This document shows, one piece after another, positions 2,292 to 40,811 of a DNA stretch of 40,811 bases. Source of the stretch: a virus. Positions within the stretch are counted from its first letter, which is position 1. Each line of letters begins with the position of its first letter. The notes below the pieces were generated by a model. It had not been told where the DNA came from, did no database searches, and worked only from the letters and a program-made list of their open reading frames with translations. The DNA lies in IMG/VR virus record IMGVR_UViG_3300002138_000067, positions 1 to 40,811 of that record, one strand, 5' to 3'. The translations under genes and the position numbers were made by a program.

Positions 2292-5200
2292 ATGGCAAAT
2301 CTAACTGTAGAACAGTTTGGAGCAACGATAAAACAGAAACACCCACAATATGCGAATGTTCCTGACTATGAGCTGGGCAGGGCCACACTACAAAAGTACC
2401 CACAGTATCAGAGCCAGGTTGAAGTTGCAAAAGATTACAACGTACCAGAAATCCCTGGTGCGAAGGCTAATCGTATTGCAGAGGAGAATGCAAAGCTCGC
2501 CACAGAGGCAAAGCAAGCCAACTCGCCACTAGGGTTCGCTGCAAACTTCGGTAAAGCACTTGTCTCTAATCTCGTACCAAGTGAGGTAGGTCTAGGGCAG
2601 AGTCTACAGAAGATATACGGTAATCAGGGCGCAACATACTCAAAACAAATTGAGCAACTTTCTGGCACTCAGCAGATGACCGCTAAGGCTATCCGTGAGA
2701 AGGAGGCTAAGGGTGGGGATGCAACGAAACTCAAGCAGATTTACAACGACAACGCGACTATGCTTCGTCAGCTTCAAGGCGACTTGAAAGACGAGACGAC
2801 ACTACCCACGACAGGACAGGTCGCTGGACAACTTGGAGGTACGGCTCTTGACCTACTCACGGCAGGTACATACGGAAAAGCAACACAGGGTATGCAGGCA
2901 GGGAAGCTAGCGGTGCAAGGCAAGGCAAGTCTTGGCCTCGCTAACAAAACTGGCATACCATCAAACCTTGTACCCAAGGCAACGAGCAACGTGCCAACTT
3001 TCGCAACCGCAGCAGGTATCCCTGAGCTGGCCCAGATTGCACGACAAAAGTCAGCAGGACTGTTCACAAAGCAGGGACTTGGTAACGTTGCCGTAGGTGG
3101 TGGTATCGGATACGGGTTTGACGTTACACAAGGTCTTCAGGGCAACCGTGGAGAGGAGAGGACAGGTGCTAGTGCATTTATCCCTGGCGTGGGAACTGCT
3201 ATTGGCGCTGGTATTCCAACAGTTGCTGGTGCTTACCAGAGCATTAAGAACGCACGTAACCCTGTGCTACACGCAGACAAGCTTGTACAACAGAGAGCAA
3301 AGGAGCTGGCCAAGCTTGATAGCTACCAACCACTCAAGAAAGCCACGGAAAAGGGACGAGCACGTGGTATAGATGTGCAAAAAGTGCTATCTGAGACAGA
3401 CGTCCTCCACGGCTCGGTGGATAAAACAGGCACCATAACTACTAAGGGTGACGGGGGTGCTGTTGAACAGTACACAAAACAGTTTATTGACGGTAACGAG
3501 AAGATTGTGAGCGAGGCACTCAAGAAGGAGGGAGCAACCTATCCACTCGCAGCGGTAAGGGAGCGTCTACTCGCTGCTGTTGATAAGGCAGGACTGGAAG
3601 GCGAAGCACTTATTAAGGCAAAGAACGCTGTTGAGCGTGAGGTGCGTGGCTATGCACTACGAGCTGACGCAGCAGGGAATGTGCCACTATCTGTCGTGCA
3701 TGATGCAAAGATAAACAAGTACAACAACATCAACTTCTTCGCCAGCGGTAACTCAAAGACCTACGACAAGACTGTTGCTCGTACCTTAAAGGATATTGTG
3801 GAGGAGACAAGCACCGCAATAGATGTGAAAGCCACTAACGCTGAACTGGCCAAGCACTTCGCTGTTATTGACTACCTCAACAAGCTAGACAACAAGAAGG
3901 TAGACGGGGGCAAGCTCGGTAAGTATTTCGCAAGCACTGTGGGGTCAATTGTTGGCTCTCACTTCGGGCCACTAGGTGCCATTGGTGGTGCTGAAGCAGG
4001 AGGACGTATCAAGGGCAATATAATGGCACGTTCATTCTCTGGTAAAACAGGGCGTGTATTTCCACAAGCAGATTCAATAACACAGGCAAAGGCTTTTATG
4101 GAAAAGCCACAACTTGCTCTACCACCAGCACCAGAGGGTGCTCCGAGGAGTTGGATAGGCTCTGGACCCACTATACCCATGGCACCTGCTGGGACTACAG
4201 AGTACGTTGGTACGGGTAAGGCTCTTGGTACTTATGTACCAACACAAAAACCAGGGACCCAATCAGTATTACCAGTAAAGACACAGTTAGCACTTCCTGC
4301 GGTTGGAGAGTCGCCTATACGGCTACCCGCAAAGAATCCAGCACCTGTATTAAACCAGGCGGAGATTGACGCAAAGTATGGTCAATCTAAATCAAATAGC
4401 TTAGGAAGTCGCCAAATAGCCCAGACAACAACCAGTGCTCCTACAACAAATGCCATACCTGAAAGCGTACCACCCAAAAGTGGTAATTCCAAGCCCCTCT
4501 ACGGACTAGCTGGGGGTATCGCACCTGAGACAGACGAGAACGGGAATGTTGTTGGTGTTACCTATAACCCTCTCGGAGCTGTTGTGGGTGTTGGCGCTAT
4601 AGCTGGAGCAGGCAAGTTGAAGGGTGTAGGGAAAGGAAAGACAGCCCCTAAAGTATTTGAAGGTTTCGCTGACCTCTCTACAAAGCTCCTAGAGAAGCTA
4701 AAGGGACGTTCTTCTGTGTCTAAGCAGTTTATTTCTGACCTCACTAACTCTCCCGACCTCAAGCAGACAGAGAAGGATTTGGTGCGCCGTATTTTGGATG
4801 AGGATAGTGGTACGAAGGCATATCACGGGACTAATGAGACATTCGACAACTTCGACACGTCAAAACTCGGCACAAACGAAAAGAACCACGCCGCAAAAAA
4901 TGCTTTCTTCTTCTCTGACAGCAAGCAAACTGCTGGGACATACGGAAAGACAGTCAAGGAGGCACAACTAAAGTTCGATAACCCTGTAACAATAGACGCT
5001 GAAGGGAAGATGTTTGGCGATGTACGAGACTTGATTGACGAAACTGTACTCACGGCAAAAAAGAACGGGAACGATGGCGTAATCATAAAGAACCTAAGCG
5101 ATGAGAAGGACTGGGGTGTCTACAATCCGACCACCCACTATGCAGTTCTCGATACAAAAGCAATTAAAGGAGACCAAATAGACGTACCTACTTTCGCAGA

Positions 5201-6455
5201 GAAAGTGAAGGCAGAGTTGCTGCCTCTTACCACAAAGAAGTCGAGTCTAAACTCAACGGCTTCGGGAGCTGGGAGGTATGAGGGTGTAAATCTACCAGAC
5301 GAACTACGTGGCCCCGTTGCAAACTATGAAGAACGGATTTACCAATCCCCCGTAAAAACAAGTGCGGGAGATGTACATTTCGGTGGCGAGAATGCAGACA
5401 ACTACTTCGGACACACCCGCGTAGAAGACCTACCAGACCTTTCACCAGAAGAAGCAAAACTTTTGAACGATGCTGGAATAGGCATGACCCCTGATATGAA
5501 AGGAACTACCCGCCGTGTCATAGAAGTACAGTCTGACCTGTTCCAGAAGGGACGGTTGGAGGGTGAAGGTTTCAGTAGAGCAGATGCGAGCTCTCCTGCG
5601 TTGAAAGCAGTCGCAACTCCTGAAGAACTGAAACAATGGGAGGCGTTCTCAAAAAAGAATATGGACAACGCCTTATCTCAAACTGAGAAAGAAAATTGGG
5701 ACAAGCTATCAAATACGTTGTTTGAAAAAGCTGGAAGTGACAGAGCAAAAGAAATTTCAAAACTCGAACCCTACAAGAACAACGCAGCACACTTCCGCAT
5801 GATACGTGAGGAGGTAAAACAAGCTGCAAAGGACGGCAAGACCAAACTCCAGTTCCCTACAGGAGAGACTGCTATGAAGATTGAGGGGTTGGGAGAGACA
5901 CCAAACTGGAGAAGAATCTACGACATAGACGGGCGCAGAATCAGCGATAAGCTGGAACTAAGCGACTTAAAGACTGGCGAAACAGTCAATCAAGCGGGAC
6001 AGGACTGGATAATCACAGACGTACTAGGAGACGGGAAGTTTAAGGCTGTGCCGAAGGATAATATGGATTTCCTTTCGGAAGAACTGGCTGAACTTGGTGT
6101 TATGGGGCCAGATGACTTGGGGCCAGCTATAGCTAGAGGAGACAGGCGCGTAGTAGACCTTCTAAATGACGGGCAGACAGCAGAACAGTTCGACATCTCA
6201 GGCAAAGTAGACACAGAGAACCCTATCTACAAGTTCTATGAGAAGGAGGTAGGGAAGTATCTGAAGAACAAGTACGGCGCAGAACTCATAACAGACCCCC
6301 AGGGAGTGAACTGGTGGCAGGTAGATGTGAAGAAGGATTACGCCAAACTACCCGTAGAGGCTTTTGTCGGTATTGGGGCTGTGGGGCTTGGTGGAGCTGC
6401 CGTGTCGTCTGACGAGAAGAAAAAGACCTCATTCCCCAAGAGCAAATCGCAGTAA
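2292..6455 (+). CDS. Giant (1,387 aa) virion-associated polyvalent / ejection-type protein with an ART-like central domain
   Basis: Largest ORF. N-terminal tandem K-x-PQY motifs. Gly/Ala-rich hydrophobic segments (GLGNVAVGGGIGYGF, GAVVGVGAIAGAG). Central block AYHGTNETFDNFD...NAFFFSDSKQTAGTYG. Downstream HTRVED...RRVIEVQSDLFQKG. It sits among tail genes, as podoviral internal proteins do. Confidence 0.55.
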   Translation: MANLTVEQFGATIKQKHPQYANVPDYELGRATLQKYPQYQSQVEVAKDYNVPEIPGAKANRIAEENAKLATEAKQANSPLGFAANFGKALVSNLVPSEVGLGQSLQKIYGNQGATYSKQIEQLSGTQQMTAKAIREKEAKGGDATKLKQIYNDNATMLRQLQGDLKDETTLPTTGQVAGQLGGTALDLLTAGTYGKATQGMQAGKLAVQGKASLGLANKTGIPSNLVPKATSNVPTFATAAGIPELAQIARQKSAGLFTKQGLGNVAVGGGIGYGFDVTQGLQGNRGEERTGASAFIPGVGTAIGAGIPTVAGAYQSIKNARNPVLHADKLVQQRAKELAKLDSYQPLKKATEKGRARGIDVQKVLSETDVLHGSVDKTGTITTKGDGGAVEQYTKQFIDGNEKIVSEALKKEGATYPLAAVRERLLAAVDKAGLEGEALIKAKNAVEREVRGYALRADAAGNVPLSVVHDAKINKYNNINFFASGNSKTYDKTVARTLKDIVEETSTAIDVKATNAELAKHFAVIDYLNKLDNKKVDGGKLGKYFASTVGSIVGSHFGPLGAIGGAEAGGRIKGNIMARSFSGKTGRVFPQADSITQAKAFMEKPQLALPPAPEGAPRSWIGSGPTIPMAPAGTTEYVGTGKALGTYVPTQKPGTQSVLPVKTQLALPAVGESPIRLPAKNPAPVLNQAEIDAKYGQSKSNSLGSRQIAQTTTSAPTTNAIPESVPPKSGNSKPLYGLAGGIAPETDENGNVVGVTYNPLGAVVGVGAIAGAGKLKGVGKGKTAPKVFEGFADLSTKLLEKLKGRSSVSKQFISDLTNSPDLKQTEKDLVRRILDEDSGTKAYHGTNETFDNFDTSKLGTNEKNHAAKNAFFFSDSKQTAGTYGKTVKEAQLKFDNPVTIDAEGKMFGDVRDLIDETVLTAKKNGNDGVIIKNLSDEKDWGVYNPTTHYAVLDTKAIKGDQIDVPTFAEKVKAELLPLTTKKSSLNSTASGAGRYEGVNLPDELRGPVANYEERIYQSPVKTSAGDVHFGGENADNYFGHTRVEDLPDLSPEEAKLLNDAGIGMTPDMKGTTRRVIEVQSDLFQKGRLEGEGFSRADASSPALKAVATPEELKQWEAFSKKNMDNALSQTEKENWDKLSNTLFEKAGSDRAKEISKLEPYKNNAAHFRMIREEVKQAAKDGKTKLQFPTGETAMKIEGLGETPNWRRIYDIDGRRISDKLELSDLKTGETVNQAGQDWIITDVLGDGKFKAVPKDNMDFLSEELAELGVMGPDDLGPAIARGDRRVVDLLNDGQTAEQFDISGKVDTENPIYKFYEKEVGKYLKNKYGAELITDPQGVNWWQVDVKKDYAKLPVEAFVGIGAVGLGGAAVSSDEKKKTSFPKSKSQ

Positions 6456-6479: not shown

Positions 6480-9400
6480 ATGCCTCCAGAACAACTACCA
6501 CCAGACGAAATAGAGCACCCAAACACTCCCATCCTAGAGACGATGGCTGTTTCTCTGGATAATATGCACAGGGACTCCGTAGCCAACGGAGAGACGCAAA
6601 TCATGCAGAACAAGCTCGCAAATGAGTCTCTTGATGCTATTGAGGTGGGTATTGACCGTGTGATTGAGAACACTATACCTAAGGAGGTGCAGAAGGTATC
6701 TTTTGAGTGGCCAGCAGACAGGGAGGACGAGGGAGAGTTTGTAACTGAAGCCTCCAAGAATCTCCTGAGGATGATTCGTGGCCCGAAAGGTCATACACCT
6801 ATTAAGGGTACCGAATACTTTACTCCCGAGGAAGTGGAGAGTATTACGGTAGACGCTACAGAACGAGCACGTCCTGTAAAAGGGAAAGATTACTATACTG
6901 AAGAGGAGAGGGTGGCACTTGTCGAGGAGATTCTACCGAAAGCAACACCCGTTAAAGGGGTGGACTATGTTGATGGTATTAACGGTGAAAAGGGAAAAGA
7001 CGGTGAAAAGGGAAAGGACGCAGACGAGGACGCTATCCTAGAGCGTCTCATTCCACTTATACCCGAGCCTAAGACAGGCAAGCAAGGCCCACGAGGTCTA
7101 GCGGGTAAAGACAAGCAACCACTTACCGCAAAGGAGATTGTGGACATGGTCTCAAGCGTAGAGGGTGATGACCGTATCCCTGCTGACGCTATTAAGGGAC
7201 TACCACTATTCGGGCGTGGCGGTGGCGGTGGGCCGTTGCTTACTATTAAGGATGCAGGAGTAACCAAGACAAGTGCAGCTACTGAACTTAACTTCGTTGG
7301 AGCTACCGTAACCTCTACTGGTGGCAATACAGCAACAATTACTGTTACAGGTGGCGGTGGCGGTGGTGGTACTTGGGGTTCAATCACGGGAACTCTTTCA
7401 GACCAGACTGACCTACAATCTGCCCTTGACGCTAAAGCTCCACTCATCTCTCCTACTTTTGCAACCTCAATCACAGGAAGCTACCTTACGGCTTCTGAGA
7501 TGCTGATTACTGATGGCTCAAAGAACATTGTCTCTGCCCCTGTAGCTACTTATCCTTCTCTCACTGAACTTACATACCTCAAGGGAGTAACAAGCGATAT
7601 TCAGACACAAATCAACGCAAAGGGTGTTGGTGATGTAACTGGTGCTGGCTCTTCAACAGACAACGCGATTGTTCGATTTGACGGCACAACAGGGAAAGTA
7701 ATACAGAACTACACTTCTGATGCTCCTACCATCTCTGATATAGGTGTAATAGCAGCCTATGGCAACATAGAAATAACATCTGCAGCACCTTCTTTCATTC
7801 TTAATGAGTCTGATGCTGGCAATCAACGCTGGGCATTTACTGCGGTTGGAGGAACAGTAACAATGCGAGACATCACAGGTGGCACGTACCCGCTTACTAT
7901 TGAGCAGACAGCACCAACTAATACATTGTATCTGAAATCTACTGGGAATGTTGGTGTTGGTACTGCTGCACCCGCTCAAAAGTTTTCAGTTGTGGGTTCA
8001 TCAGGAACCACAATGATACAGCTCCGAGCAAACAATACTTCTGGTACAGGTATTCTTGGTTTTAGAAACTCAAACTCAGAGGGCGCAGACACTACTCAAA
8101 TCAAATCCGAAAGGCTCAACACTCCAACAGCAGGAGACACCGCGATTGAGTTCTTCAACACAAAGTCAGGCTCTCTAAGTGAGTCTATGAGAATAGATAC
8201 TACAGGCAACGTGGGCATTGGTACCGCCTCACCAGGGGCAAAGCTTTCAGTAAAAGGGGCAGGAACGACAACAGGAATCAACTTTCAAACTGAAGATTCT
8301 GCTGGCACAAAAATCATTACTGCCCTTGATAGTGGTGCTACTGGGTTCAGGAACGAAACACCTACAGCTGCTATAGACTCCTACGCTGTGGGCACAGACC
8401 CAACAACAAGTGCACAAATACGCCTGTCGTCTTTGTATACAAGCATCGCAGTAGCATCACCTATGATTGGTGCTATTGACTTCTATTCTCGCGATACACA
8501 GTTTCCTACTACGGAAGGAATAAAGGCAGCGCAAATCTCTGTAGAGGCAAACCGTTCACATATCTCTACGGTAGCAGACTCAGACATTGTATTTCGTGCG
8601 GTTGGCGGTATCAGCACGACCCTCACAGAGCGTGGTCGCTTTGGGGCAAACGGTTTTGGTCTCGGGGCAAACGGCAATCCGTCAGTTTCTACTCTTGGCT
8701 TCTTCTTGGATACAGTAGGAACGAAGGGTGCGTCTATTGGAAACAATAGTAATGGGTTCAACACGACACCACCAGTAAACGGGCTTATGGTGGAGGGTCG
8801 TGTTGCTCTTGGTACTACCACAACAACCCTTTCAACTGCTGTAAATAGTCAGGTGTATGTGCTTAACGATGAGACGTCAGGTTCAAACTACACGAACAAT
8901 ACTCTTACTCTTTACCGTACTAACGTAAATCAGACAGGAACGCTTCTACACGGTGCAACAGAAAGAACAGCAAACAGTGCATTCAAATTGCTGGAGTTCT
9001 TCACAGGTGGAGACGCTGGCACTTCTCAGTTTTTGGTTAGAGGTGACGGTAATGTTGGTGTTGGTGTTGCTTCCCCTACCGCGAAACTTCACCTCAAGGC
9101 AGGTACAGCTACTGCCTCAACAGCACCCCTTAAACTAACTTCAGGAACCAGTCTCACCACACCTGAGTCTGGGGCTATTGAGTTTGATGGGACAGACCTG
9201 TTCTACACAAACAGCACCCCTACTCGTAGGACAATAGCTAACCTAGCTGGTACGCAGACGTTTACGAATAAGCGTAACCAGCCACGCATTGTGTCGGCAG
9301 CATCATATACAACTGACACAGGCACATCGCTAGACGTGTCTACTACAGACATCTTTGTGATTACCGCACAAGCTGGAGCACTCCTATTCAATGCCCCAAG

Positions 9401-16297: not shown

Positions 16298-16590
16298 ACC
16301 TCTGCTTCACCAATAGCACTGTCTAGGGCTGTCTCTATGTGCTCAATTACGGTGTTTGCAATGTCTGTTGGCATATGACACTCGGGGCAAGCGATACCTT
16401 GTCGCATTGGCAATGTGCTCTTAGCCCTCTCAAGCCCCAAAAGATACGCCTTACGGATAAGGGAGTCTTGGAAAGCAAGCATAGTAGGGTAAGCTGTTTG
16501 CCCGATATTATCGTTCTTCACGATGAACCGCGAGAACTTAGTGGCAAACTCTTCCCTACTCTCTACCAGTAACTTTGTGAGGGGTGTCAT
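16294..16590 (-). CDS. Hypothetical protein (weak member of the paralogue set)
   Basis: REEFATKF...QDSLIRKAYLL. ATGA-type overlaps at both ends. Confidence 0.45.
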   Translation of the reverse strand: MTPLTKLLVESREEFATKFSRFIVKNDNIGQTAYPTMLAFQDSLIRKAYLLGLERAKSTLPMRQGIACPECHMPTDIANTVIEHIETALDSAIGEAEV

Positions 16591-16970
16591 ACGGTAAGTA
16601 GTTCAGGGTTCTCGTAGATGTTGCCGATGATTTCGAGCGTGGAGAATGTCTCTTCACTGGCATATCCTCGCGCGAAAAAGTCCTTTCGGTCTGTCTCGCT
16701 CGGATAGCGGTACTTCCAGTAGGCTGTGAATTTTCCGTCGAGGAACTCCACCTTGCCTATCATCGAGGGGTCTACTCCAATAACTACAATATCCCCCTCA
16801 TATATCTCCTTCCCGTTCTTATCCAAGAGTCCTGTATCTTGTTGCCAATCGTCTAAAGCACTGGGTTTCTCATCCTTTTCGGCATAGGTACACAAGTCAT
16901 TCATTGTCCAGTAGGTGAACGTTTTGTTGTGTATATCCCAAGCACGAAACTTCAATATCTTGTCTCTCAT
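16587..16970 (-). CDS. YopX-family protein
   Basis: KFRAWD...DKNGKEIYEGDIV...LEIIGNIYENPELL. Start taken at MRDKILKF (16970), overlapping the upstream stop. Confidence 0.8.
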   Translation of the reverse strand: MRDKILKFRAWDIHNKTFTYWTMNDLCTYAEKDEKPSALDDWQQDTGLLDKNGKEIYEGDIVVIGVDPSMIGKVEFLDGKFTAYWKYRYPSETDRKDFFARGYASEETFSTLEIIGNIYENPELLTV

Positions 16971-17308
16971 ACAACTCCAAGGACAGAACTGATAAAGGCG
17001 ATGCACTCGGGTGACTGGTCTTCAGCGGAATCTTTGCGGAGGTTCCAAGCGCCAACTTTTCCTTTTGCATATGCAGAACGTAGGTACATGAAGTTGGCAG
17101 TGATGTCTGTAGATAGACCGTACTTTGGTATCGCAAGCAGTACATCAACAAGTCGTATGGGGCGACAAGGGATATTACTCAGCGTGTTCTTACATACAGC
17201 TTCTGGATTTGACTCGGTTGCTTCACAGTCACATTCATATGCAAGTTCAGGCACAGCTTCTATAATTTTAGCCCGTATCTTCTCTAGTAGGTCTGGGGTA
17301 TTAGTCAT
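16967..17308 (-). CDS. Hypothetical protein (113 aa)
   Basis: Compact ORF within the operon. No motif recognised. Confidence 0.5.
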   Translation of the reverse strand: MTNTPDLLEKIRAKIIEAVPELAYECDCEATESNPEAVCKNTLSNIPCRPIRLVDVLLAIPKYGLSTDITANFMYLRSAYAKGKVGAWNLRKDSAEDQSPECIAFISSVLGVV

Positions 17309-17949: not shown

Positions 17950-18777
17950 TTACTTTATGTTGATAAACGGTACGTTTCCTCCTGTCACTTGTGGTAGTAC
18001 GCCATTCCACTTTTCAATAGCACGAAGTTCAAGCACTTTTGGGTTAGAACTAATCGCTACTGATTCAACACGTAGAGCCTCTGCGCGTCCCTTAGCGGAT
18101 TCAATAGCCTGCTTTGCCTCGTACTCTACCTGCGCGAGTTTGTTCTTAGCTGCAAGAGCGTTCTGCTCAGCTGTCACCTTCGCTTCAATTGCTTCGTTGA
18201 AACTCTTAGAGAAGTCGAAGTTAATGATTGAGAAGTTCTCTACTACGATTCCACTAGGGGCTAAACGAGTAGCCAGAGCGAGTCGTATGTCTTCCTTTAC
18301 CTCCTCACGCTTCGTAATAAGCTCTTCAGCTGTAAACTTTGCAGTTGATGCTTTAACCGATTCCTGAATTGCTGGGTCTATAAGGCGTGTCTTATACTCA
18401 ATACCAACATTCTGGTACAGGTTTGCAACGCTTTCGTGCTTGATAGAGTAGTTTAGAGCAACCTGACTATTTACGGTCTGTAGGTCTTTTGATGCTGCGC
18501 TCGCTGCTGTCTCGTCTTTTTGGGTCTTAACATCAAGGATAAATACCTTTTCAATGAATGGCATTTTTACATACAACCCCTCGCCAATAACTCCCTCTGT
18601 CACCGCTCCAAATCGTGTCTTTACACCTCGCTCACCAGCACCAACAGTGCCAAATGAATTGAACAATAGAACTAGAACAACGATTAGCGATACTGCGTGT
18701 GCTGCGATTTTTACGAAGTTGGGAATCAAAACTTCCTGCCCATAAGAGTTAGTACCTTTCTTTGTGTAGTTGAACAT
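17950..18777 (-). CDS. SPFH / Band-7 / prohibitin-family membrane protein
   Basis: N-terminal TM (IAAHAVSLIVVLVLLF). SPFH core (GERGVKTRFGAV...YVKMPFIEKVFILDVKTQ...TVNSQVALNY). C-terminal Ala/Glu coiled coil. Confidence 0.85.
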   Translation of the reverse strand: MFNYTKKGTNSYGQEVLIPNFVKIAAHAVSLIVVLVLLFNSFGTVGAGERGVKTRFGAVTEGVIGEGLYVKMPFIEKVFILDVKTQKDETAASAASKDLQTVNSQVALNYSIKHESVANLYQNVGIEYKTRLIDPAIQESVKASTAKFTAEELITKREEVKEDIRLALATRLAPSGIVVENFSIINFDFSKSFNEAIEAKVTAEQNALAAKNKLAQVEYEAKQAIESAKGRAEALRVESVAISSNPKVLELRAIEKWNGVLPQVTGGNVPFINIK

Positions 18778-23828: not shown

Positions 23829-23912
23829 AGGAACAGTATACCACAGGAGGTGTAATAGTTATCCACACATTAGGCAGGGGGTTGTAATAGAAGCGTGGTG
23901 TATAGTGTACCC

Positions 23913-24845
23913 ATGAAAGAACATATTTGGATTGACTGGCTTAATCGGCGTGGAATTACTAACTCAGTGATTGAAGACTTCGGTCTTTCGTTCGGTTCTC
24001 ACTACTTAATGGGCGATGCAATAACCATACCTGTGTGCAATCAGGATGGTTCTTTTTCTTTTAATAAATACCGCCGTGACCCCCAGCAAGGGGACGTTAC
24101 TCCCAAGTACCTGTATGACAAAGGCTCACGGTCAACGGTCTTCGGTCTAGATAAGATTAAGGACAGCACATCAGTCCTCATAACTGAAGGGGAGCTAGAT
24201 ACTCTGGTGTCATGGTCAAAGAATATCCCTGCCGTTAGCTCTACGGGTGGAGCTGGGACGTTTCCTCCTGACTGGGTTGAGTATTTCACCAATAAGGAGG
24301 TTACGGTGTGCTATGACAATGACAGTGCTGGTGGCGCTGGCATGGTACGGGTGCTTGATATTATCCCCAATGCTTACGTTTTATTCCTCCCTGACCGTCC
24401 TGGTGTAAAGGATATGTCTGACTATGTTGCGGGTGGAGGAGACCTTGCGGAGCTACTTCGTGGGCGGGTTCACTTTAGTAGTTTGCAAGAGGTGATAGAT
24501 GACAGGGCGCTCCGCCTTTCATTATGGCAATCTACTTTCTTTCACGATGCATACATTGAAGCGAATAGTGTGCCCGCATACGTTAGAACAGAGCGCAGGG
24601 AAAGTAAGGATGATTCAGAGATAGAGGCAGCCAAGACATACCCTATAAGCGACCTGTTAAAGTTCGACAAGAATCATAAGGCGCTTTGTATCTGGCACAA
24701 CGAGAAAACACCGTCACTGCATTACTTCAAGAACACCAACACAGTTTACTGCTTCGGTGGGTGTGGTAAACGCGCTGATGCAATAGATGTCTATAGGCAG
24801 ATTAACGGGGCTTCGTTCACAGAAGCTATCAAGGCCCTTGTATGA
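23913..24845 (+). CDS. DnaG-type primase (Toprim) with a C-terminal CHC2 zinc finger
   Basis: Toprim motifs VLITEGELDTLV and VCYDNDSAGG. C-terminal CIWHNEKTPSLHYF...VYCFGGCGKRADAIDVY matches the DnaG CHC2 finger. ATG at 23913 preferred over the track's GTG at 23895. Confidence 0.8.
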   Translation: MKEHIWIDWLNRRGITNSVIEDFGLSFGSHYLMGDAITIPVCNQDGSFSFNKYRRDPQQGDVTPKYLYDKGSRSTVFGLDKIKDSTSVLITEGELDTLVSWSKNIPAVSSTGGAGTFPPDWVEYFTNKEVTVCYDNDSAGGAGMVRVLDIIPNAYVLFLPDRPGVKDMSDYVAGGGDLAELLRGRVHFSSLQEVIDDRALRLSLWQSTFFHDAYIEANSVPAYVRTERRESKDDSEIEAAKTYPISDLLKFDKNHKALCIWHNEKTPSLHYFKNTNTVYCFGGCGKRADAIDVYRQINGASFTEAIKALV

Positions 24846-26008
24846 CATTCAATGAACTCCAGGAATGTGTTGGGGAGTATGTCTACACCGAGGACAATGG
24901 CATGTCCCGTATCGCTATGGCCTCTATTATTGCAACGCGAATGAAACTTGGAGACCCTGTATGGATGCTTCTTATTGGGCCATCATCAGGGGGTAAGTCT
25001 CAAATCCTCCGTCCAATTGCTCTAACTGATGAGAAGTTTATCCACCGTATTGACGATGTTACCGAGAACACGTTTCTTTCTGGTGCGAAAGCCGCTAAGG
25101 GGCAGAAGGACATTTCGCTCCTGAAGCGAATCGGTAGTAACGGCATAATCGTCATTTCTGACTTTACTGTAATCTTCTCCAAGAGTAGCGAGACGAAGAC
25201 CGCGGTGCTCAGTCAGATGCGCATGATTTATGACGGCGAGATGGTTAAGTACAGTGGCTCTTCTAGTGAGCCGATTAGTTGGAAGGGGTATATGGGTGTT
25301 CTTGCGGGGAGCACACCATCTATATATAGCCACTTCGAGGAGGTGGCTGATATGGGTGAGCGATTTATTTACTACCGCATGAAGCCCTATGATGTTGAGA
25401 AGGCAACGCGTATCTCCTTACACCGTACCGTGTTCGGTAAGGAGCTGGATGGGATACTCTCTGACATGTACGGAGAGTACATTAAGGAATCTGTTATGTC
25501 CGCAAATGGTGAAGTGCCACCGTTATCAGAGGAGGTTGATGAGCGTATTCTTACGATTGCGATGTTCGCTGCTCTCTTGCGCACCCCCACACACTATGAC
25601 CGTTTCAGTAAGTCTGTGGACAGGGTACCTGTGTCAGAAGCACCGATGCGTGTTGCGTTGCAATTACGAGCAATAGCACGGGCGCTCTCAGTCATGGCTC
25701 ACCACGATACAGGCTCCTGGGAGCTTGAGGAGGCTGATATACGGTATTTGGAATGGTGTGCCTATTCACTGGCTAACGAGGAGCGTAGGGCTTGTTTGAG
25801 GGTTCTAGGGGCACTTGGGTACAGGGAGACACTTAGCACTCAGATGATTGCTGATGCAATCGGACTCTCTACTCCGATAACGGGGATAAGTCTACAGAGC
25901 TTGGCTGCTGTAGGAATCCTTGAGCGCTCTGGTAGTGGTAACAGTGGACATGTGTGGATGATTAAAGATAGTGCTACTTGGGGTATTGTACAGAGGCTTG
26001 AATCGTAA
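24842..26008 (+). CDS. P-loop NTPase, putative primase-associated replicative helicase with a C-terminal wHTH
   Basis: Walker A GPSSGGKS, Walker-B-like IIVISDF, C-terminal LSTQMIADAIGLSTPITGISLQSLAAVGILER. ATGA overlap with the primase gene. Confidence 0.5.
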   Translation: MTFNELQECVGEYVYTEDNGMSRIAMASIIATRMKLGDPVWMLLIGPSSGGKSQILRPIALTDEKFIHRIDDVTENTFLSGAKAAKGQKDISLLKRIGSNGIIVISDFTVIFSKSSETKTAVLSQMRMIYDGEMVKYSGSSSEPISWKGYMGVLAGSTPSIYSHFEEVADMGERFIYYRMKPYDVEKATRISLHRTVFGKELDGILSDMYGEYIKESVMSANGEVPPLSEEVDERILTIAMFAALLRTPTHYDRFSKSVDRVPVSEAPMRVALQLRAIARALSVMAHHDTGSWELEEADIRYLEWCAYSLANEERRACLRVLGALGYRETLSTQMIADAIGLSTPITGISLQSLAAVGILERSGSGNSGHVWMIKDSATWGIVQRLES

Positions 26009-26039
26009 TAGTTATTTTGTTTTTCAAAAGTGGTCGACA

Positions 26040-26076
26040 CACGGTGGCTTAGGTAAGCCACCGTGTTTTTTATTTT
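26040..26076 (+). terminator. Rho-independent terminator after the replication operon
   Basis: 11-bp stem CACGGTGGCTT / AAGCCACCGTG, loop AGGT, then TTTTTTATTTT. Confidence 0.85.
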
Positions 26077-26130
26077 GCTTTTTTTAATGTCAACAAATAA
26101 GCCATTTTTTGTAAGTCGGTTGCCTTTTGA

Positions 26131-26166
26131 GAAAAAGCCAAAAACAAAAAAAGGCTCAACTGAGCC
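26131..26166 (-). terminator. Terminator-like hairpin oriented for the minus strand
   Basis: GGCTC-AACT-GAGCC preceded on the + strand by AAAAAGCCAAAAACAAAAAAA, which is a U tract on the minus strand. The stem is short. Confidence 0.35.
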
Positions 26167-26264
26167 GTGCTGTGATGGGGTTTGTGATTATAACACTTCT
26201 AGCGCCTGTAGGCAGGTCTTGTAGACCAAGCCTACAGGTAAGCTGTCAATAAGTCAAGTCATAG

Positions 26265-26293
26265 TTAACTTCTTTTGGATGGATGTATATACT
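26265..26293 (+). promoter_or_regulatory. Sigma70-like promoter candidate upstream of the structured RNA locus
   Basis: TTAACT (26265-70), 17 nt, TATACT (26288-93). The same -10 hexamer occurs at 20516. Confidence 0.4.
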
Positions 26294-26400
26294 GGTGATG
26301 CGTGGGCAAGGCTCTCTTAGAGGAGTAGGAGTTATCAACAGGTAGGCATTGAACAAAAACAAAAGGGTGCAAGAATAGTAAGAGAGCTCATTGACAATAC

Positions 26401-26504
26401 GTTCTGTGTTTTTGGGGGGACGCGGGTAATAATTGACTGAGCTGAAATGCGAAGCAGAATAACCGACTAGAGGATTAAGTTCCTTCTCCCCACAAGCACA
26501 GAAC
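26401..26504 (+). ncRNA. Structured RNA domain 1 (104 nt), closed by a 20-position helix
   Basis: 26401-20 pairs with 26485-504: 17 Watson-Crick pairs, 2 G.U, 1 T.C mismatch. No ORF. Confidence 0.45.
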
Positions 26505-26599
26505 ACTAGGTACTTCCACTCCGCGAGCCTACGGGTTCGTGGGTAAGTATTCATTCTCTACGACTTCTCACGAGGAGTCGCGGGGTGGGAGTATCTGGT
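26505..26599 (+). ncRNA. Structured RNA domain 2 (95 nt), closed by an uninterrupted 22-bp helix
   Basis: 26505-26 pairs with 26578-99: 18 Watson-Crick pairs and 4 G.U, no mismatch. Inner hairpin CCTACG-GGTT-CGTGGG at 26528-43. Confidence 0.5.
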
Positions 26600-26606
26600 A
26601 CATAAA

Positions 26607-26861
26607 GTTATTGGGTGTTTTTGGGAACAATTCTTTTGAAGGCTCCAACCAAAGTCACGGCACGCAGAAGCTTGCAAGCGTAGTGAAGGCATTTACTACA
26701 AATCATTTAGGGGTAAGGCGCGGTAGTCAATCCGAGGGGGCCTCTTTATGAAAGAAAGCGTGTGTAGACCATATTTGCGACCTAAACCTGTTGCTGTTGG
26801 AGGAACCGCCGAGGAAGTTGAAAGCACGAAAGGAAGAATTGTCCCACAAGCACCTAATAAT
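26607..26861 (+). ncRNA. Structured RNA domain 3 (255 nt), closed by an approximately 28-bp helix
   Basis: 26607-26/26842-61 gives 19 of 20 paired, including 3 G.U. It continues as 26629-37/26832-40 (9 bp, 2 G.U). The domain contains the palindrome GCTTGCAAGC at 26670-79. Confidence 0.45.
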
Positions 26862-26871
26862 CTAGTACATA

Positions 26872-27051
26872 GTTTCTAGGGTTCTGTTCTGGTGTGGCGG
26901 AATAGGTAGACGCACATACGAGGTCGGCCAGCTTACAGACTACCGATATGCGAGGTGACTATACGAGAATAGGTATCCAGTCCTAGTAGCGGAGATATTC
27001 ACTACGAAATGTCTCGTCAAATCCTCGCCACCAGAACAAAACCCTAGAGAC
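26872..27051 (+). ncRNA. tRNA-Leu-like mimic on a 23-position stem (not a canonical tRNA)
   Basis: 26872-94 pairs with 27029-51 (21 Watson-Crick pairs, 1 G.U, 1 C.A). It is followed by a class-II Leu-type U8-G9 and D arm, TGGCGGAATAGGTAGACGC (26895-913). T-stem GCGAG/CTCGC (26950-54/27024-28) carries TCAAATC loop remnants split by an approximately 60-nt insert. No anticodon arm could be built. Confidence 0.5.
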
Positions 27052-27067
27052 AGAATATAGAAACTAT

Positions 27068-27139
27068 TGGGACGTAGCTCAGCGGTAGAGCGGTTCACTG
27101 TTAATGAATTGGTCGCAGGTTCGAATCCTGCCGTCCCAG
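27068..27139 (+). tRNA. tRNA-Asn: tRNA-Asn (anticodon GUU)
   Basis: Cloverleaf built by hand: acceptor TGGGACG/CGTCCCA; D arm GCTC-AGCGGTA-GAGC; anticodon arm GTTCA-CTGTTAA-TGAAT; T arm GCAGG-TTCGAAT-CCTGC; discriminator G. CCA is not encoded. Confidence 0.9.
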
Positions 27140-27172
27140 CCGTGAACTTATTAAATTATTACCGAGAGAAAT

Positions 27173-27412
27173 ATGGAAAAGACTACACTCGTCACGCACT
27201 TGAAGTACGGGAAAGAGGACGAACCCTGGAAGCCAAACCTGCTTACAGCTGTTTTACAGCTTGTACTGGCACCAGTTGCGTTCCTGTTAGGTATTCTTAT
27301 CGCAATACTTATTGTCGTCTATGATTTTCTAGGAATGGGAAGCCAGCATATTGTCTTCCGCGCGACACCAAAGAAAATAGAGATGCCTGACGGCACAATA
27401 CTTAGTAAATAG
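27173..27412 (+). CDS. Small membrane protein
   Basis: 79 aa with a long hydrophobic stretch LLTAVLQLVLAPVAFLLGILIAILIVVY. Confidence 0.5.
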   Translation: MEKTTLVTHLKYGKEDEPWKPNLLTAVLQLVLAPVAFLLGILIAILIVVYDFLGMGSQHIVFRATPKKIEMPDGTILSK

Positions 27413-37839: not shown

Positions 37840-39426
37840 GTGGCAACCCCAAAGATAATTGCAGATTTTGAAAGCTCGCTAAGCACAGCTGTTGCTATAG
37901 GTGGTACTTCGTTTACCCTGGCCTCAGCAACAGATGACGATGGTGTAGCACTACCCTCTGGACTGTACTACTTTACCGTTGACAATGGCTCCTCTAACAA
38001 GGAGTACCTCTCAGGTACCCTCTCAGGTACCTCAGTCACTTCCGTAGTATCCGTATCCCGTCAAGGCACAGAGACTTCAGGAGCAGCACGTGCACACCGT
38101 GTGGGAGCCTCGGTAATCATTACCGACTTCGCTACCTACAAGAAGTACATGGACGGTATCGCTCTGGTATCAGCACCAGACGCAGACACCAACACTAAGG
38201 GTGTATCAGAGCAAGCTACACAGGCAGAAGTGGACGCTGGTACTACTACAGGCGGTACTTCAGCAAACCTTTTCGTAAACCCGTCAACAGTACGTGCTAA
38301 GAACTACAACGACTACGTTGCAGACACAGGCTCAGCAGACGCTTACGCAATCGCCCCGTCTCCTGCAATCACAGCATACGCAGCAGGACAGGTATTCACG
38401 TTCAAGGCAGTAAACGCAAACACTGGAGCTTCAACGCTTGCGGTGAATGGTCTTGCGGCGAAGTCCATAGTTTTGACAGGCGCAATTACAGCAGGACAGA
38501 TTGTTCAGGTTGTGTATGACGGAACAGATATGCAGATGCTTAGTTCAGGTCCTGACTCCTCGTTCGGAGATGGTTCTGATGGTGATGTAACGATTTCAAC
38601 ACCAACAACCCTTACACGTGACATGTACTACAACAATCTTGTTGTAACTGATACTCTCACGACAAACGGCTTTGCTATTTACGTTAAGGGCACAATCTCA
38701 GGCGTTGGCACAATTAAATATCCAACAGGCACCGCAGGAGGGAACGCAAGTGGGCAGACAGAAGGAACGGCTGGTACTGCAATCACAACAGGAAGATTTA
38801 GGAATATAGCAGGAGGTGTTGGCGCGCAAGGTAGAGCTGCTACTTCTGGCTCCACGGCTGGAGTAGATGGAACCATAGGTGGTGCAGCAACACCGTCAGG
38901 TGGGGTTATTGGAGGCGCTGGTGGCAACTCTGCATCAGGCGGGGCAGGTATTGGAACAGGGGGCGCTGGTGGTGTGGTTACTGCACCGCTAGTAAAAATT
39001 GGGGCATTCCTAATGACTACGATTTTTGGCCTTGATATTGCCAATACTGGAGTACCACTAAGTTTGGTAGGCTCATCTGGGGGGGGTGGTGGTGCTGGAG
39101 GCTCATCTGGAGGTGGTTCTGTGGGCGGCGGTGGCGGCGGCGGTGGTGCAAGTGGTGGCATCGTGTTTATCGTTGCCAACATTTGGGCTGGGACATTTAC
39201 CATACAAGCAATTGGTGGTGCAGGTGGTGCAGGGTCGACAGGAAATGGAAATGGTGGTGGTGGTGGTGGTGGTGGTGGTGGAGTGTCAATCGTCTTCTAT
39301 AGAACAAAAACATGGTCTGGTTCTTACGTCCTGACAGGAGGTGCTGCGGGCGCCACTGGTGGTTCAGGTGCATCAGCAGGAAACGCTGGCACAGTAGGGG
39401 CATCTTATGAAATCTCTGCAAAATAA
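37840..39426 (+). CDS. Tail fibre protein 1 with a Gly-rich C-terminal domain
   Basis: Fibre motifs TNTKGVSEQATQAEVDAGTTTGGTSANLFVNPSTV and NANTGASTLAVNGLAAKSIV. The C-terminal 250 aa are rich in GGxGG, with G8-G10 runs. Confidence 0.8.
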   Translation: MATPKIIADFESSLSTAVAIGGTSFTLASATDDDGVALPSGLYYFTVDNGSSNKEYLSGTLSGTSVTSVVSVSRQGTETSGAARAHRVGASVIITDFATYKKYMDGIALVSAPDADTNTKGVSEQATQAEVDAGTTTGGTSANLFVNPSTVRAKNYNDYVADTGSADAYAIAPSPAITAYAAGQVFTFKAVNANTGASTLAVNGLAAKSIVLTGAITAGQIVQVVYDGTDMQMLSSGPDSSFGDGSDGDVTISTPTTLTRDMYYNNLVVTDTLTTNGFAIYVKGTISGVGTIKYPTGTAGGNASGQTEGTAGTAITTGRFRNIAGGVGAQGRAATSGSTAGVDGTIGGAATPSGGVIGGAGGNSASGGAGIGTGGAGGVVTAPLVKIGAFLMTTIFGLDIANTGVPLSLVGSSGGGGGAGGSSGGGSVGGGGGGGGASGGIVFIVANIWAGTFTIQAIGGAGGAGSTGNGNGGGGGGGGGGVSIVFYRTKTWSGSYVLTGGAAGATGGSGASAGNAGTVGASYEISAK

Positions 39427-40786
39427 CATGCAACCACTCACCGACCAATCAACACAGCAGGAGGGACGGCTCGCGGTTAATGCTAACCAGGAGGCAGCAG
39501 CTAAACTAGGTGTCGTAATCCCTGGCTCTACCACTCCTGCACAGGCGTATAAGCAGGCTAACCTCGGAGAGGGCGACCCGTATGCTACTGCACTTGGCAC
39601 ACAAGCAGGTAAGGCACTCCAGGTGGCAAATGAGCCTATTGACGAGACTGCTATCTACCGCAATAAACTTGGACTCTTCCAGGGAGAGATTGACGCAGTA
39701 AACAAGATTTATCAGGAGAAACTTGCACAGCAGATTACACAAGGACAGGGAAACCTCGGCACAGGACGAGCCATACAGGCACGTTCAGGTACCCTAGGCT
39801 CTGACTTTGGCGTAGCACAGACCGCAGACATCACCCGCCAGAACACCAATCAGGAGGATTTGGTACGAGCAGAACTCGCTGCAAAGATTGGCGCAATCAT
39901 GGGAACGGTGCGTGGTGACGTTGCAACGGAACTAGCTGCAAAGCGAGAGGCACAGCGAGCAGGTTCACAGGACTACTTGACCTACCTTGGCTCACAATCA
40001 GAACGCAAGACCTCTAATACACAGAAACTAGCATCCCTACTTCTTGACCAGGGACTCACACCAGACCAGATTGACCCTGCACAGCTCAAACAAGCAGCAT
40101 CTTCATACGGTGTATCTGTTCAGGATATCCTAGGAGCATACGCTTCAGAGAAGAAGACACGTGATGCAGCTCTACAAGATAGTCAATTTAATCTTTCTGA
40201 AGGACAGGCTCGGTTTGATGCAGATGGAAACTTAATTGCAAGCAGGGCTAAGACCTATGCACCTAGTTCAGGGAATGGCGGTGGCTTGACTCGATACCAG
40301 CAGTTTTCTGCTACTCAATCACTAGCAAAAGATACTCAGGCACGAACAGCCAATGCTAGGGAACTAAGTCGTCAAGCAACAATGATTGACAATGCGTACA
40401 ACAACATTGTAAGTGGTAAAAACAGGAGCCTTAATACACAGGTAATTGTTACATCATTTAACAAGATACTTGACCCAACGTCCGTTGTTCGTGAGAGTGA
40501 GTATGACCGAACAGCAGCTGGTCAGGCGCTCATCGCACAACTTGAAGGAAAGGTACAAAACATCGCTCAAGGTGGAGCTGGTGTAACGAATGTAACTCTC
40601 AAGGAGGCATCAGATATTGCAAAACAATACATACAGGGAGCCAATGCCTCTATACTCGCAGAGAACGCAAGGTCTCAGCAAATCGCAGATAGTTTTGGGC
40701 TTAACTCAGACTTTGTTGGAAGTGTCGGAGGGCAGAGTGGTGGAAGTAATCCTAACGACCCACTAGGACTATTTGGCGAACAGTAA
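39407..40786 (+). CDS. Duplicate of 910..2289 (virion structural / putative ejection protein)
   Basis: Translation identical to 910..2289. Confidence 0.55.
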   Translation: MKSLQNNMQPLTDQSTQQEGRLAVNANQEAAAKLGVVIPGSTTPAQAYKQANLGEGDPYATALGTQAGKALQVANEPIDETAIYRNKLGLFQGEIDAVNKIYQEKLAQQITQGQGNLGTGRAIQARSGTLGSDFGVAQTADITRQNTNQEDLVRAELAAKIGAIMGTVRGDVATELAAKREAQRAGSQDYLTYLGSQSERKTSNTQKLASLLLDQGLTPDQIDPAQLKQAASSYGVSVQDILGAYASEKKTRDAALQDSQFNLSEGQARFDADGNLIASRAKTYAPSSGNGGGLTRYQQFSATQSLAKDTQARTANARELSRQATMIDNAYNNIVSGKNRSLNTQVIVTSFNKILDPTSVVRESEYDRTAAGQALIAQLEGKVQNIAQGGAGVTNVTLKEASDIAKQYIQGANASILAENARSQQIADSFGLNSDFVGSVGGQSGGSNPNDPLGLFGEQ

Positions 40787-40788
40787 TT

Positions 40789-40811
40789 ATGGCAAATCTA
40801 ACTGTAGAACA
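40789..40811 (+). CDS. First 23 nt of the giant-protein gene (duplicate of 2292..2314, 3'-truncated by the window end)
   Basis: ATGGCAAATCTAACTGTAGAACA is identical to 2292-2314. Confidence 0.6.

Follow-up and report, generated by a model that had tools for sequence, protein, structure and literature searches.

The region between the replication and packaging genes of a phage genome, represented by IMG/VR virus record IMGVR_UViG_3300002138_000067 (here the window, 40,811 nt, analysed at full length), was found to carry a modular array of four independent RNA domains, D1 to D4, and not one large ornate RNA. The data support reading this locus (26009-27067) as a structured RNA of several domains, strand-specific and phage-borne beside a tRNA, and not as a protein gene. 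A covariance model built from other contigs matches D4 over its full length and places it in a large phage family of tRNA-Leu-like RNAs. The best explanation, to which we give a probability of roughly 0.55, is that the locus is an accessory unit whose co-transcribed precursor would be cut into stable RNAs, with the D4-type RNA acting by mimicry of the tRNA elbow, a function that we infer.

A preliminary description of this locus had divided its + strand from 26401 to 27051 into four consecutive domains, and folding of 26390-27067 gave identical domains and coordinates (Table 1). The minimum free energy (MFE) of this segment was -253.5 kcal/mol (z -8.4 against dinucleotide shuffles), compared with -198.7 kcal/mol (z -3.5) for its minus strand, a difference of 55 kcal/mol in favour of the + strand. 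Folded singly, the four domains each had a z of -4.2 to -6.7 against mononucleotide shuffles. The closing helices sum to 77 Watson-Crick and 12 G.U pairs, reproducing the number of wobbles counted earlier and agreeing, together with the two z values, with the earlier claim that pairing favours RNA of the + strand. The 5' strands of these helices are rich in G and U and the 3' strands in C and A, and the pairing is therefore specific to the + strand. Two overlapping open reading frames (ORFs) do exist here (26246-26554 minus, 26539-26751 plus); they had been judged non-proteinaceous in appearance and gave no Pfam or PHROG match.

The family to which D4 belongs was delineated by two motif scans of IMG/VR. 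The first, using the 20-mer GGCGGAATAGGTAGACGCAC, matched genuine tRNA-Leu(UAA/CAA) genes and many elements that ARAGORN does not call. The uncalled elements have in common an acceptor stem, a D-arm and a T-arm with loop UGCAAAU, and a hypervariable arm of 40-130 nt replaces the anticodon arm. The second scan used GGTGACTATACGAG, and most of the elements among the 120 matches listed fall into a subfamily whose T-loop is split after its UG by an insertion composed of the invariant ACUAUACGAG, a variable hairpin and CUCG(G/U), an arrangement identical to that of D4. After removal of true tRNAs, the two scans yielded at least 121 non-redundant members, at least 76 of them insertion-type.

Members were gathered by invariant-motif scans and then filtered on acceptor and T-stem pairing, and covariance model R1 was built from 48 insertion-type members of other contigs, none of them from the window. 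Across the four helices of the 48-member alignment 99.2% of cells were paired, compared with 40-48% when the partners were slid, and 195 cells were altered on both sides, compared with 48 in shuffles; the D-stem has seven C-G to U-A exchanges. The family shows no variation at U8, A14, A15, A21, the CAAAU of the T-loop and the U that immediately precedes the T-stem, and G18 and G19 are nearly invariant. The invariant U before the T-stem could be the partner of A15 in a Levitt-type pair. Model R1 also recovers simple variants, tandem copies in tRNA clusters and a minimal form without the variable arm: two to three tandem copies of the simple variant lie inside large phage tRNA clusters (L023 11363-11854, L063 and L123), and the minimal form measures 60 nt (L011 5678-5737). 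In one member (L177, approximately 3204-3369 in reverse-complement coordinates) what looks like a canonical tRNA T-arm, GGCGGGTTCGATTCCCGC, is nested within the variable arm of the tRNA-like RNA.

No description of the family was found in Rfam 15 or in the literature searched, literal motif strings included. It may sit unnamed in the IMG/VR structured-RNA catalogue, which lists 10,006 candidate RNAs (PMC10690425). Against 50,697 phage records, neither blastn of the locus nor a 32-nt query over the family T-loop motif returned a match.

In D4 the acceptor stem has 7 bp (TCTGGTG/CACCAGA), is prolonged into the long closing helix and is followed by U8 and G9, the D-arm GCGGAAUAGGUAGACGC of class II type and the variable arm. 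The T-stem is GCGAGG/CCUCGC and the T-loop reads UG(ACUAUACGAG...CUCGU)CAAAU, with the insertion in brackets. The parts of a tRNA elbow can thus be read from 26888-27035, with acceptor stem, D-arm and T-arm bearing the equivalents of U8, A14, G18, G19, U54, C56 and A58. Model R1 matched D4 with 99.1 bits (E 3.1e-26) over model positions 1-164 of 164, its sole match in the window. All family motifs are held between complementary 7-nt strands, namely UG-GCGGAAUAGGUAGACGC and GG-UG-ACUAUACGAG ... CUCG(G/U)-CAAAUCC, and the family fold imposed on D4 lies only 2.5 kcal/mol above its MFE. As a tRNA, D4 received no + strand call from ARAGORN (intron and low-score options) or Rfam RF00005, and no complete cloverleaf with an anticodon arm was found in it. 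Nothing credible was called anywhere in D1-D4 by ARAGORN under its intron, low-score, tmRNA and mitochondrial options.

For D3, a single homologue was identified, on the minus strand of contig L191 (3549-3781; nhmmer E 5.5e-7). It lies approximately 85 nt upstream of a D4-type element, in the same order as in the window, and this D4-type element is the one most similar to the window D4 (nhmmer E 1.7e-10). The two D3 sequences have a common architecture in which 13 of 40 predicted pairs are altered on both sides with pairing kept, as illustrated by the compensated hairpin GUAGUGAAGGCAUUUACUAC in comparison with GAGACGGAGGCAUUCGUCUC. Outside D3-D4 the window and L191 contigs have only one weak protein match in common and are otherwise nearly unrelated, and D3-D4 therefore behaves as a transferable unit. 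These comparisons place D3 in a rare second family, one that travels together with D4. A model of D3, R2, applied to 289 loci found only the two members already known. Scans with the D3 motif gave L191 and chance matches in viral contigs, 26 chance matches in one metagenome scan and one chance match in one genome scan, with no further real member among them.

No homologues of D1 or D2 were found by nhmmer on the collected loci or by exact-motif scans, and a pattern scan for the D1/D3 closing stem was also blank. The closing helices of D1 and D3 do have identical 11-mers on both strands, GTGTTTTTGGG at 26407-26417 and 26613-26623 and CCCACAAGCAC at 26489-26499 and 26843-26853. A linker motif, ATCT(G/A)GTACATA, occurs twice, as ATCTGGTACATA at 26593-26604, overlapping the 3' end of D2, and as ATCTAGTACATA at 26860-26871, at the end of D3. 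These common 11-mers and the repeated linker suggest either stem duplication or recombination, or a common processing signal.

The long closing helix of D4 recurs in the family. Among 77 insertion-type sequences (76 from IMG/VR and D4), closing-helix length is bimodal, with 43 sequences at 7-15 bp and 34 at 20-29 bp; D4 has 23 by the counting method used for the family. In the extensions beyond the 7 selected bp there were 61 G.U and 18 A.C positions, both treated alike, and this excess of G.U over A.C supports pairing in RNA of the annotated strand.

Further stem-closed domains accompany many of these elements. A direct stem search found at least one extra domain with a stem of at least 17 bp in the flanks of 27 of the 76 insertion-type elements. 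The density of such domains was 0.74/kb in the flanks, compared with 0.13/kb in control segments of the same contigs and 0.28/kb on the opposite strand of the same flanks. Almost the whole layout of the window recurs, in unrelated sequence, in L226 (2734-3684), an ORF-free stretch of approximately 950 nt (z -5.9) with five consecutive stem-closed domains; the family element is the last of these, and two tRNAs come within 15 nt after it. The neighbouring domains at L226 matched no Rfam family, and those of different loci showed no sequence kinship to one another. Upstream of the family element in L182 (approximately 8933-9245, reverse-complement coordinates), mutually complementary segments of approximately 20 nt lie 60-90 nt apart, resembling a hairpin repeat array.

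Proximity to tRNA genes is also a recurrent property, with 22 of 121 family members lying within 500 nt of a tRNA and all 22 on the strand of that tRNA. The commonest recognizable genes downstream of family members are TerS, TerL and HNH. Single cases of an RtcB RNA ligase, an Acb2/Tad1-type anti-CBASS/anti-Thoeris protein, a ThsA-Macro domain and a Cas12f/TnpB-like protein were observed within 2.5 kb downstream. In Lactobacillus phage ATCC 8014-B2 (L290, JX486088) the order is tRNA-Asn, ROOL, tRNA-Leu, tRNA-Met, a coding sequence, the family element, tRNA-Gly and TerL; neither ROOL (263-835, 139 bits) nor the family element (1318-1530) is annotated in the record. Phage Lpa804 (L291) likewise carries an unannotated tRNA-Leu-like element (2319-2530) in a tRNA cluster upstream of TerL. 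Rfam finds nine tRNAs in this Lpa804 stretch, and the record lists none. The culturable Lactobacillus phages phiJL-1 and Sha1 are further carriers of the family.

Relatives of the window were traced through the adjacent 388-aa protein, giving three IMG/VR loci and seven loci from protein look-ups, of which six were distinct. Identity in the 388-aa protein was 51-72% for these six, with the closest homologues at 65-72%. D1-D4 and any tRNA were absent from all six. In nhmmer comparisons of the locus with the relatives, matches were confined to a segment holding two boxes separated by a hairpin (26205-26238), and at least two relatives keep both boxes (L001 at approximately 4517-4603 and L243 at approximately 5483-5556). 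The second box has the consensus form TTGTCAA(T/G)A(A/T)GTCAAGTCATA(GTTA). With the array absent from the relatives and the boxes kept in at least two of them, the array with tRNA-Asn seems to have been inserted between a conserved control region and the first late ORF, and tRNA-Asn is counted with the array since these relatives are without it. Judged from this comparison, D1-D2-D3-D4-tRNA-Asn is an accessory non-coding RNA module. The segment 26184-26267 probably serves the late (packaging) operon as its regulatory or promoter region, and the two boxes could represent an activator site, a late promoter or something related to pac.

The phage genome unit measures 38,497 bp, with an exact duplication of 2,314 bp at the window ends (1-2314 and 38498-40811) that fits a circular assembly or a terminally redundant phage genome. 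The array, tRNA-Asn and the flanking replication and packaging genes are all on the + strand. By crude ORF tiling, 26009-27172 is by a wide margin the longest ORF-poor stretch in the window; the locus had been described as the sole long non-coding stretch, which held, and the accompanying figure of at most 220 nt for other gaps was roughly right, the tiling showing gaps of up to approximately 290 nt. An intrinsic terminator forms the left boundary of the non-coding region, and an AT-rich stretch with inverted repeats lies at 26061-26156. The promoter sequence noted earlier is present as a match to 9 of 12 consensus positions and is a candidate start for the array transcript; tRNA-Asn was likewise called 16 nt beyond the last domain and on the same strand, as had been reported. 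No terminator-like site was seen between tRNA-Asn and the first downstream ORF (27173).

Table 1. Positions of the RNA domains, signals and neighbouring genes in the window
Feature	Position	Strand	Description
Primase	23895-24845	+	Replication module, upstream side of locus
388-aa protein	24842-26008	+	Replication module, upstream side of locus
Intrinsic terminator of 388-aa gene	26039-26066	+	12-bp stem then T run; perfect 13-nt inverted repeat
Box GTGATTATAACAC	26184-26196	+	Common to relatives without the RNAs (alignment with L001, L243)
Box CTGTCAATAAGTCAAGTCATAGTTA	26243-26267	+	Common to relatives without the RNAs (alignment with L001, L243)
Sigma-70-like promoter match	26265-26293	+	TTAACT-17-TATACT; 9/12 consensus; overlaps conserved box
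D1	26401-26504	+	104 nt; closing helix 18 pairs (2 G.U)
D2	26505-26599	+	95 nt, three-way junction; closing helix 20 pairs (4 G.U); z -6.7
D3	26607-26861	+	255 nt, multi-branch; closing helix 29 pairs (5 G.U); conserved core 26643-26802
D4	26872-27051	+	tRNA-Leu-like; core 26888-27035; closing helix 22 pairs in MFE fold
tRNA-Asn(GUU)	27068-27141	+	16 nt past D4; found by ARAGORN and Rfam
TerS	28075	+	Packaging module, downstream side of locus
TerL	28493	+	Packaging module, downstream side of locus
SU10-type portal	29753	+	Packaging module, downstream side of locus

Among the neighbouring genes, that for the 388-aa protein always follows the primase gene. The protein has more than 550 metagenome homologues and no solid family assignment, with a weak MarR-type winged-helix signal at its C-terminus and, in one homologue, a faint DUF7123 match. 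The leftward early block of the phage includes an SPFH/Band 7 protein (17950-18777 minus, E 1e-34) and a YopX protein (16587-17006 minus).

In the favoured explanation, the array and tRNA-Asn would be transcribed as one precursor forming the 5' part of the late transcript. The minimum substrate of RNase III is approximately 20 bp, about two helical turns, and the duplexes are read as RNase III-type stems because of this length: the closing helices of D2, D3 and D4 (20, 29 and 22 pairs) reach the flanking-duplex length of approximately 20 bp, with D1 at 18. The alternative of RNase III processing modules offered in the preliminary description agrees with these helix lengths. The closing duplexes of 18-29 pairs would then act in processing and protection, freeing each domain as a stable RNA, and RNase P and RNase Z would release the tRNA. 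The D4-type RNA would act in trans, its elbow mimicry binding or titrating a host or defence factor that reads the shape of tRNA(Leu) and not its anticodon, and the two variable arms may carry lineage-specific features.

Several observations weigh against this explanation. Transcription of the array, its cleavage by RNase III and the stability of its products are all steps that we infer, and none of the window ORFs scanned encodes a recognizable RNA-processing or RNA-binding protein. The match to a promoter is a weak one, of a kind that is not rare in this region (seven found, compared with 3.1 expected). The D1 and D2 structures are thermodynamic predictions with no homologues found, and the evidence for D3 consists of two sequences. 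Within the family, the filter on acceptor and T-stem pairing inflates the pair statistics of these two helices. The insertion subfamily has no conserved discriminator base (A in 30 of 77), and a long helix often encloses the 3' end, so aminoacylation is unlikely for this subfamily.

The same layout could be read as a structured 5' untranslated region, with the array serving as a cis-acting leader of the late operon for control, antitermination or stabilization and no trans-acting RNAs being produced. The position of the array between the conserved late-region box and the first late ORF, the continuity into the downstream ORFs without a terminator-like site, and the common placement of family members ahead of TerS, TerL or HNH genes are all consistent with such a leader. 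We nevertheless consider it unlikely, given that close relatives have the same operon and upstream box without these RNAs, that family members also occur in tRNA clusters far from terminase genes, some in tandem (L023, L063, L123 and L291), and that a tRNA-like core with self-contained stem-closed domains points to excised stable RNAs. A feature acting at the DNA level, such as a replication origin, a pac or cos site or single-stranded DNA hairpins, would suit the location between the primase/388-aa genes and terS, the AT-rich inverted repeats of 26061-26156 and the conserved boxes at 26184-26267. Against this, the window helices depend on their 12 G.U pairs and are 55 kcal/mol worse on the minus strand, the family-wide extensions show 61 G.U and 18 A.C, and D4 belongs to a tRNA-shaped RNA family. 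Since the boxes are retained in relatives without 26300-27141, an ori or pac function, if there is one, would belong to the left part of the region and not to the four domains; the preliminary description had likewise placed a possible ori/pac element in the AT-rich left part. Of the alternatives weighed here, action of the locus at the DNA level is the least plausible.

Two further alternatives concern the origin of the domains. D1-D3, or the whole locus, might be a highly diverged ROOL/GOLLD relative forming a multimeric RNA cage; the niche is the same (phage-borne, beside tRNAs and upstream of terminase genes), and phage ATCC 8014-B2 has ROOL and a D4-type element in one tRNA cluster. This is very unlikely in view of the failure of sub-regions of the locus to match at E<=10 with permissive filters when the positive control scored 139 bits, the fold as a chain of independent modules with no single long-range architecture, and the recurrence of D3 and D4 elsewhere without D1 and D2. 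The identity between the 5' part of D4 and the D-arm of real phage tRNA-Leu(UAA) genes would also be expected if D4 were a tRNA-Leu pseudogene among decaying tRNA genes and neutral hairpins, the remainder being selfish or junk palindromes, and the blank searches for D1 and D2 homologues and the dispensability of the module in relatives point the same way. Decay is difficult to reconcile with invariant motifs foreign to tRNAs (ACUAUACGAG and UGCAAAU), with compensatory stems, with at least 121 non-redundant members in diverse contigs, with the strand-specific G.U bias, or with a D3 structure kept through pair changes on both sides, and we regard it as highly improbable.

On the preferred reading of a processed array, a broader proposal can be made, which we put forward tentatively as a possibility and no more firmly. 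The locus would be one case of a widespread class of phage non-coding RNA arrays, for which no earlier description was found, in which unrelated structured RNAs, enclosed in duplexes of approximately 20-30 bp, surround a tRNA-Leu elbow mimic with a conserved T-loop insertion. Its modules would move between unrelated phages and would hijack, or serve as decoys for, host factors that recognize the shape of tRNAs. If so, the targets would be, for example, tRNA-targeting defence nucleases or tRNA-processing or -modifying enzymes. The tRNA mimics tmRNA, Y RNAs and mascRNA each uncovered distinct biology, and phage tRNA islands are now tied to evasion of tRNA-cleaving defence systems. The D4 family is large, leaves the tRNA-Leu elbow and acceptor stem exactly as they are and discards the anticodon; Rfam 15 does not contain it, and the records of cultured Lactobacillus phages that were inspected (ATCC 8014-B2 and Lpa804) do not annotate it. 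It raises the question of what factor, of the cell or of a defence system, recognizes tRNA(Leu) purely by its shape. The companion domains and recurrent closing stems of 20-30 bp suggest a general phage way to package or process sets of small RNAs. With model R1 and the signature of stem-closed arrays, many of the 'empty' intergenic regions that precede terminase genes could be annotated.

ROOL and GOLLD have been described near tRNAs and in prophages (PMC5737381). The window locus resembles both in being phage-borne, ORF-free and beside a tRNA gene, and it resembles ROOL further in the co-occurrence of ROOL with a D4-type element upstream of TerL in phage ATCC 8014-B2. In contrast to the single fold of 570-800 nt in ROOL/GOLLD, the window has a chain of independent modules of 95-255 nt, and the preliminary suggestion of a member of ROOL (RF03087), GOLLD (RF01998), HEARO, OLE, raiA, tmRNA, RNase P or an intron class was not borne out by any Rfam 15 match. 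Rfam 15 found nothing but tRNA-Asn when the entire window was scanned at the gathering score, or when 25900-27200, 26395-26870 and 26865-27058 were scanned at E<=10 under permissive filters; this negative is meaningful because the same tool finds ROOL in the Lactobacillus phage. Of the proposal that the locus was a member of an ornate-RNA-like class or a new one, the phage-borne multi-domain RNA by a tRNA stood and the single large ornate RNA did not, given the modular array and the placement of D4 in a separate tRNA-Leu-like family. ROOL and GOLLD share only their genomic niche with the window locus.

The long duplexes recall those of RNase III-processed precursors. In rRNA operons and phage T7 early transcripts, RNase III stems are long duplexes formed from flanking complementary sequence, and the window RNAs similarly sit on long duplexes in a presumed polycistronic precursor with a tRNA. 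The products in the window would differ in being small non-coding RNAs in place of rRNAs or mRNAs, and their processing is putative.

The class II tRNA-Leu(UAA/CAA) of phages and bacteria resembles the D4 family in the 7-bp acceptor stem, U8 and G9, the canonical order of parts, a D-arm GCGGAAUAGGUAGACGC that genuine tRNA-Leu genes of phage contigs carry in identical form, the nucleotides A14, A15, G18, G19 and A21, the T-stem, and the T-loop equivalents of U54, C56 and A58. The family departs from tRNA-Leu in having no anticodon stem-loop but the hypervariable arm of 40-130 nt at its place, a 6-bp T-stem, a T-loop UGCAAAU with G at the position of pseudouridine 55 and usually a hairpin of 30-100 nt inserted in that loop, and an acceptor often of 20-29 bp with no encoded CCA and no conserved discriminator; ARAGORN and the Rfam tRNA model both miss D4. 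A tmRNA identity for D4 was rejected on a negative ARAGORN tmRNA search and the lack of an Rfam tmRNA match.

Among RNAs that imitate tRNAs, the small stable RNAs of phage T4, rnaC (species 1) and rnaD (species 2), are comparable in lying beside phage tRNA genes on the same strand, and rnaC ends in a tRNA-like T-arm and acceptor segment. They differ in having no tRNA-Leu D-arm, T-loop insertion or long closing helices, and were rejected as family members, since model R1 finds nothing in T4 68000-75000 and no sequence or profile relation was seen. YrlA Y RNAs are non-coding RNAs, also present in phages, that copy the D-arm, T-arm and acceptor with the nucleotides of tertiary interactions and have a long terminal helix (PMC4201824). 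They are bound by Ro60/Rsr, and a function through tRNA-recognizing factors has been proposed (PMC4201824). In YrlA the parts are permuted (T-arm, acceptor stem-loop, D-arm) and the ends form a Ro60-binding stem at the anticodon position (PMC4201824), whereas the D4 family keeps the normal tRNA order and its ends exit through the acceptor stem. With this canonical order and no Rfam Y RNA match, D4 was rejected as a YrlA or other Y RNA; no Ro60/TROVE gene was found among the part of the window ORFs that was scanned. The YrlA Y RNAs are nevertheless the closest analogues of the D4 family, with T4 rnaC and rnaD as a second.

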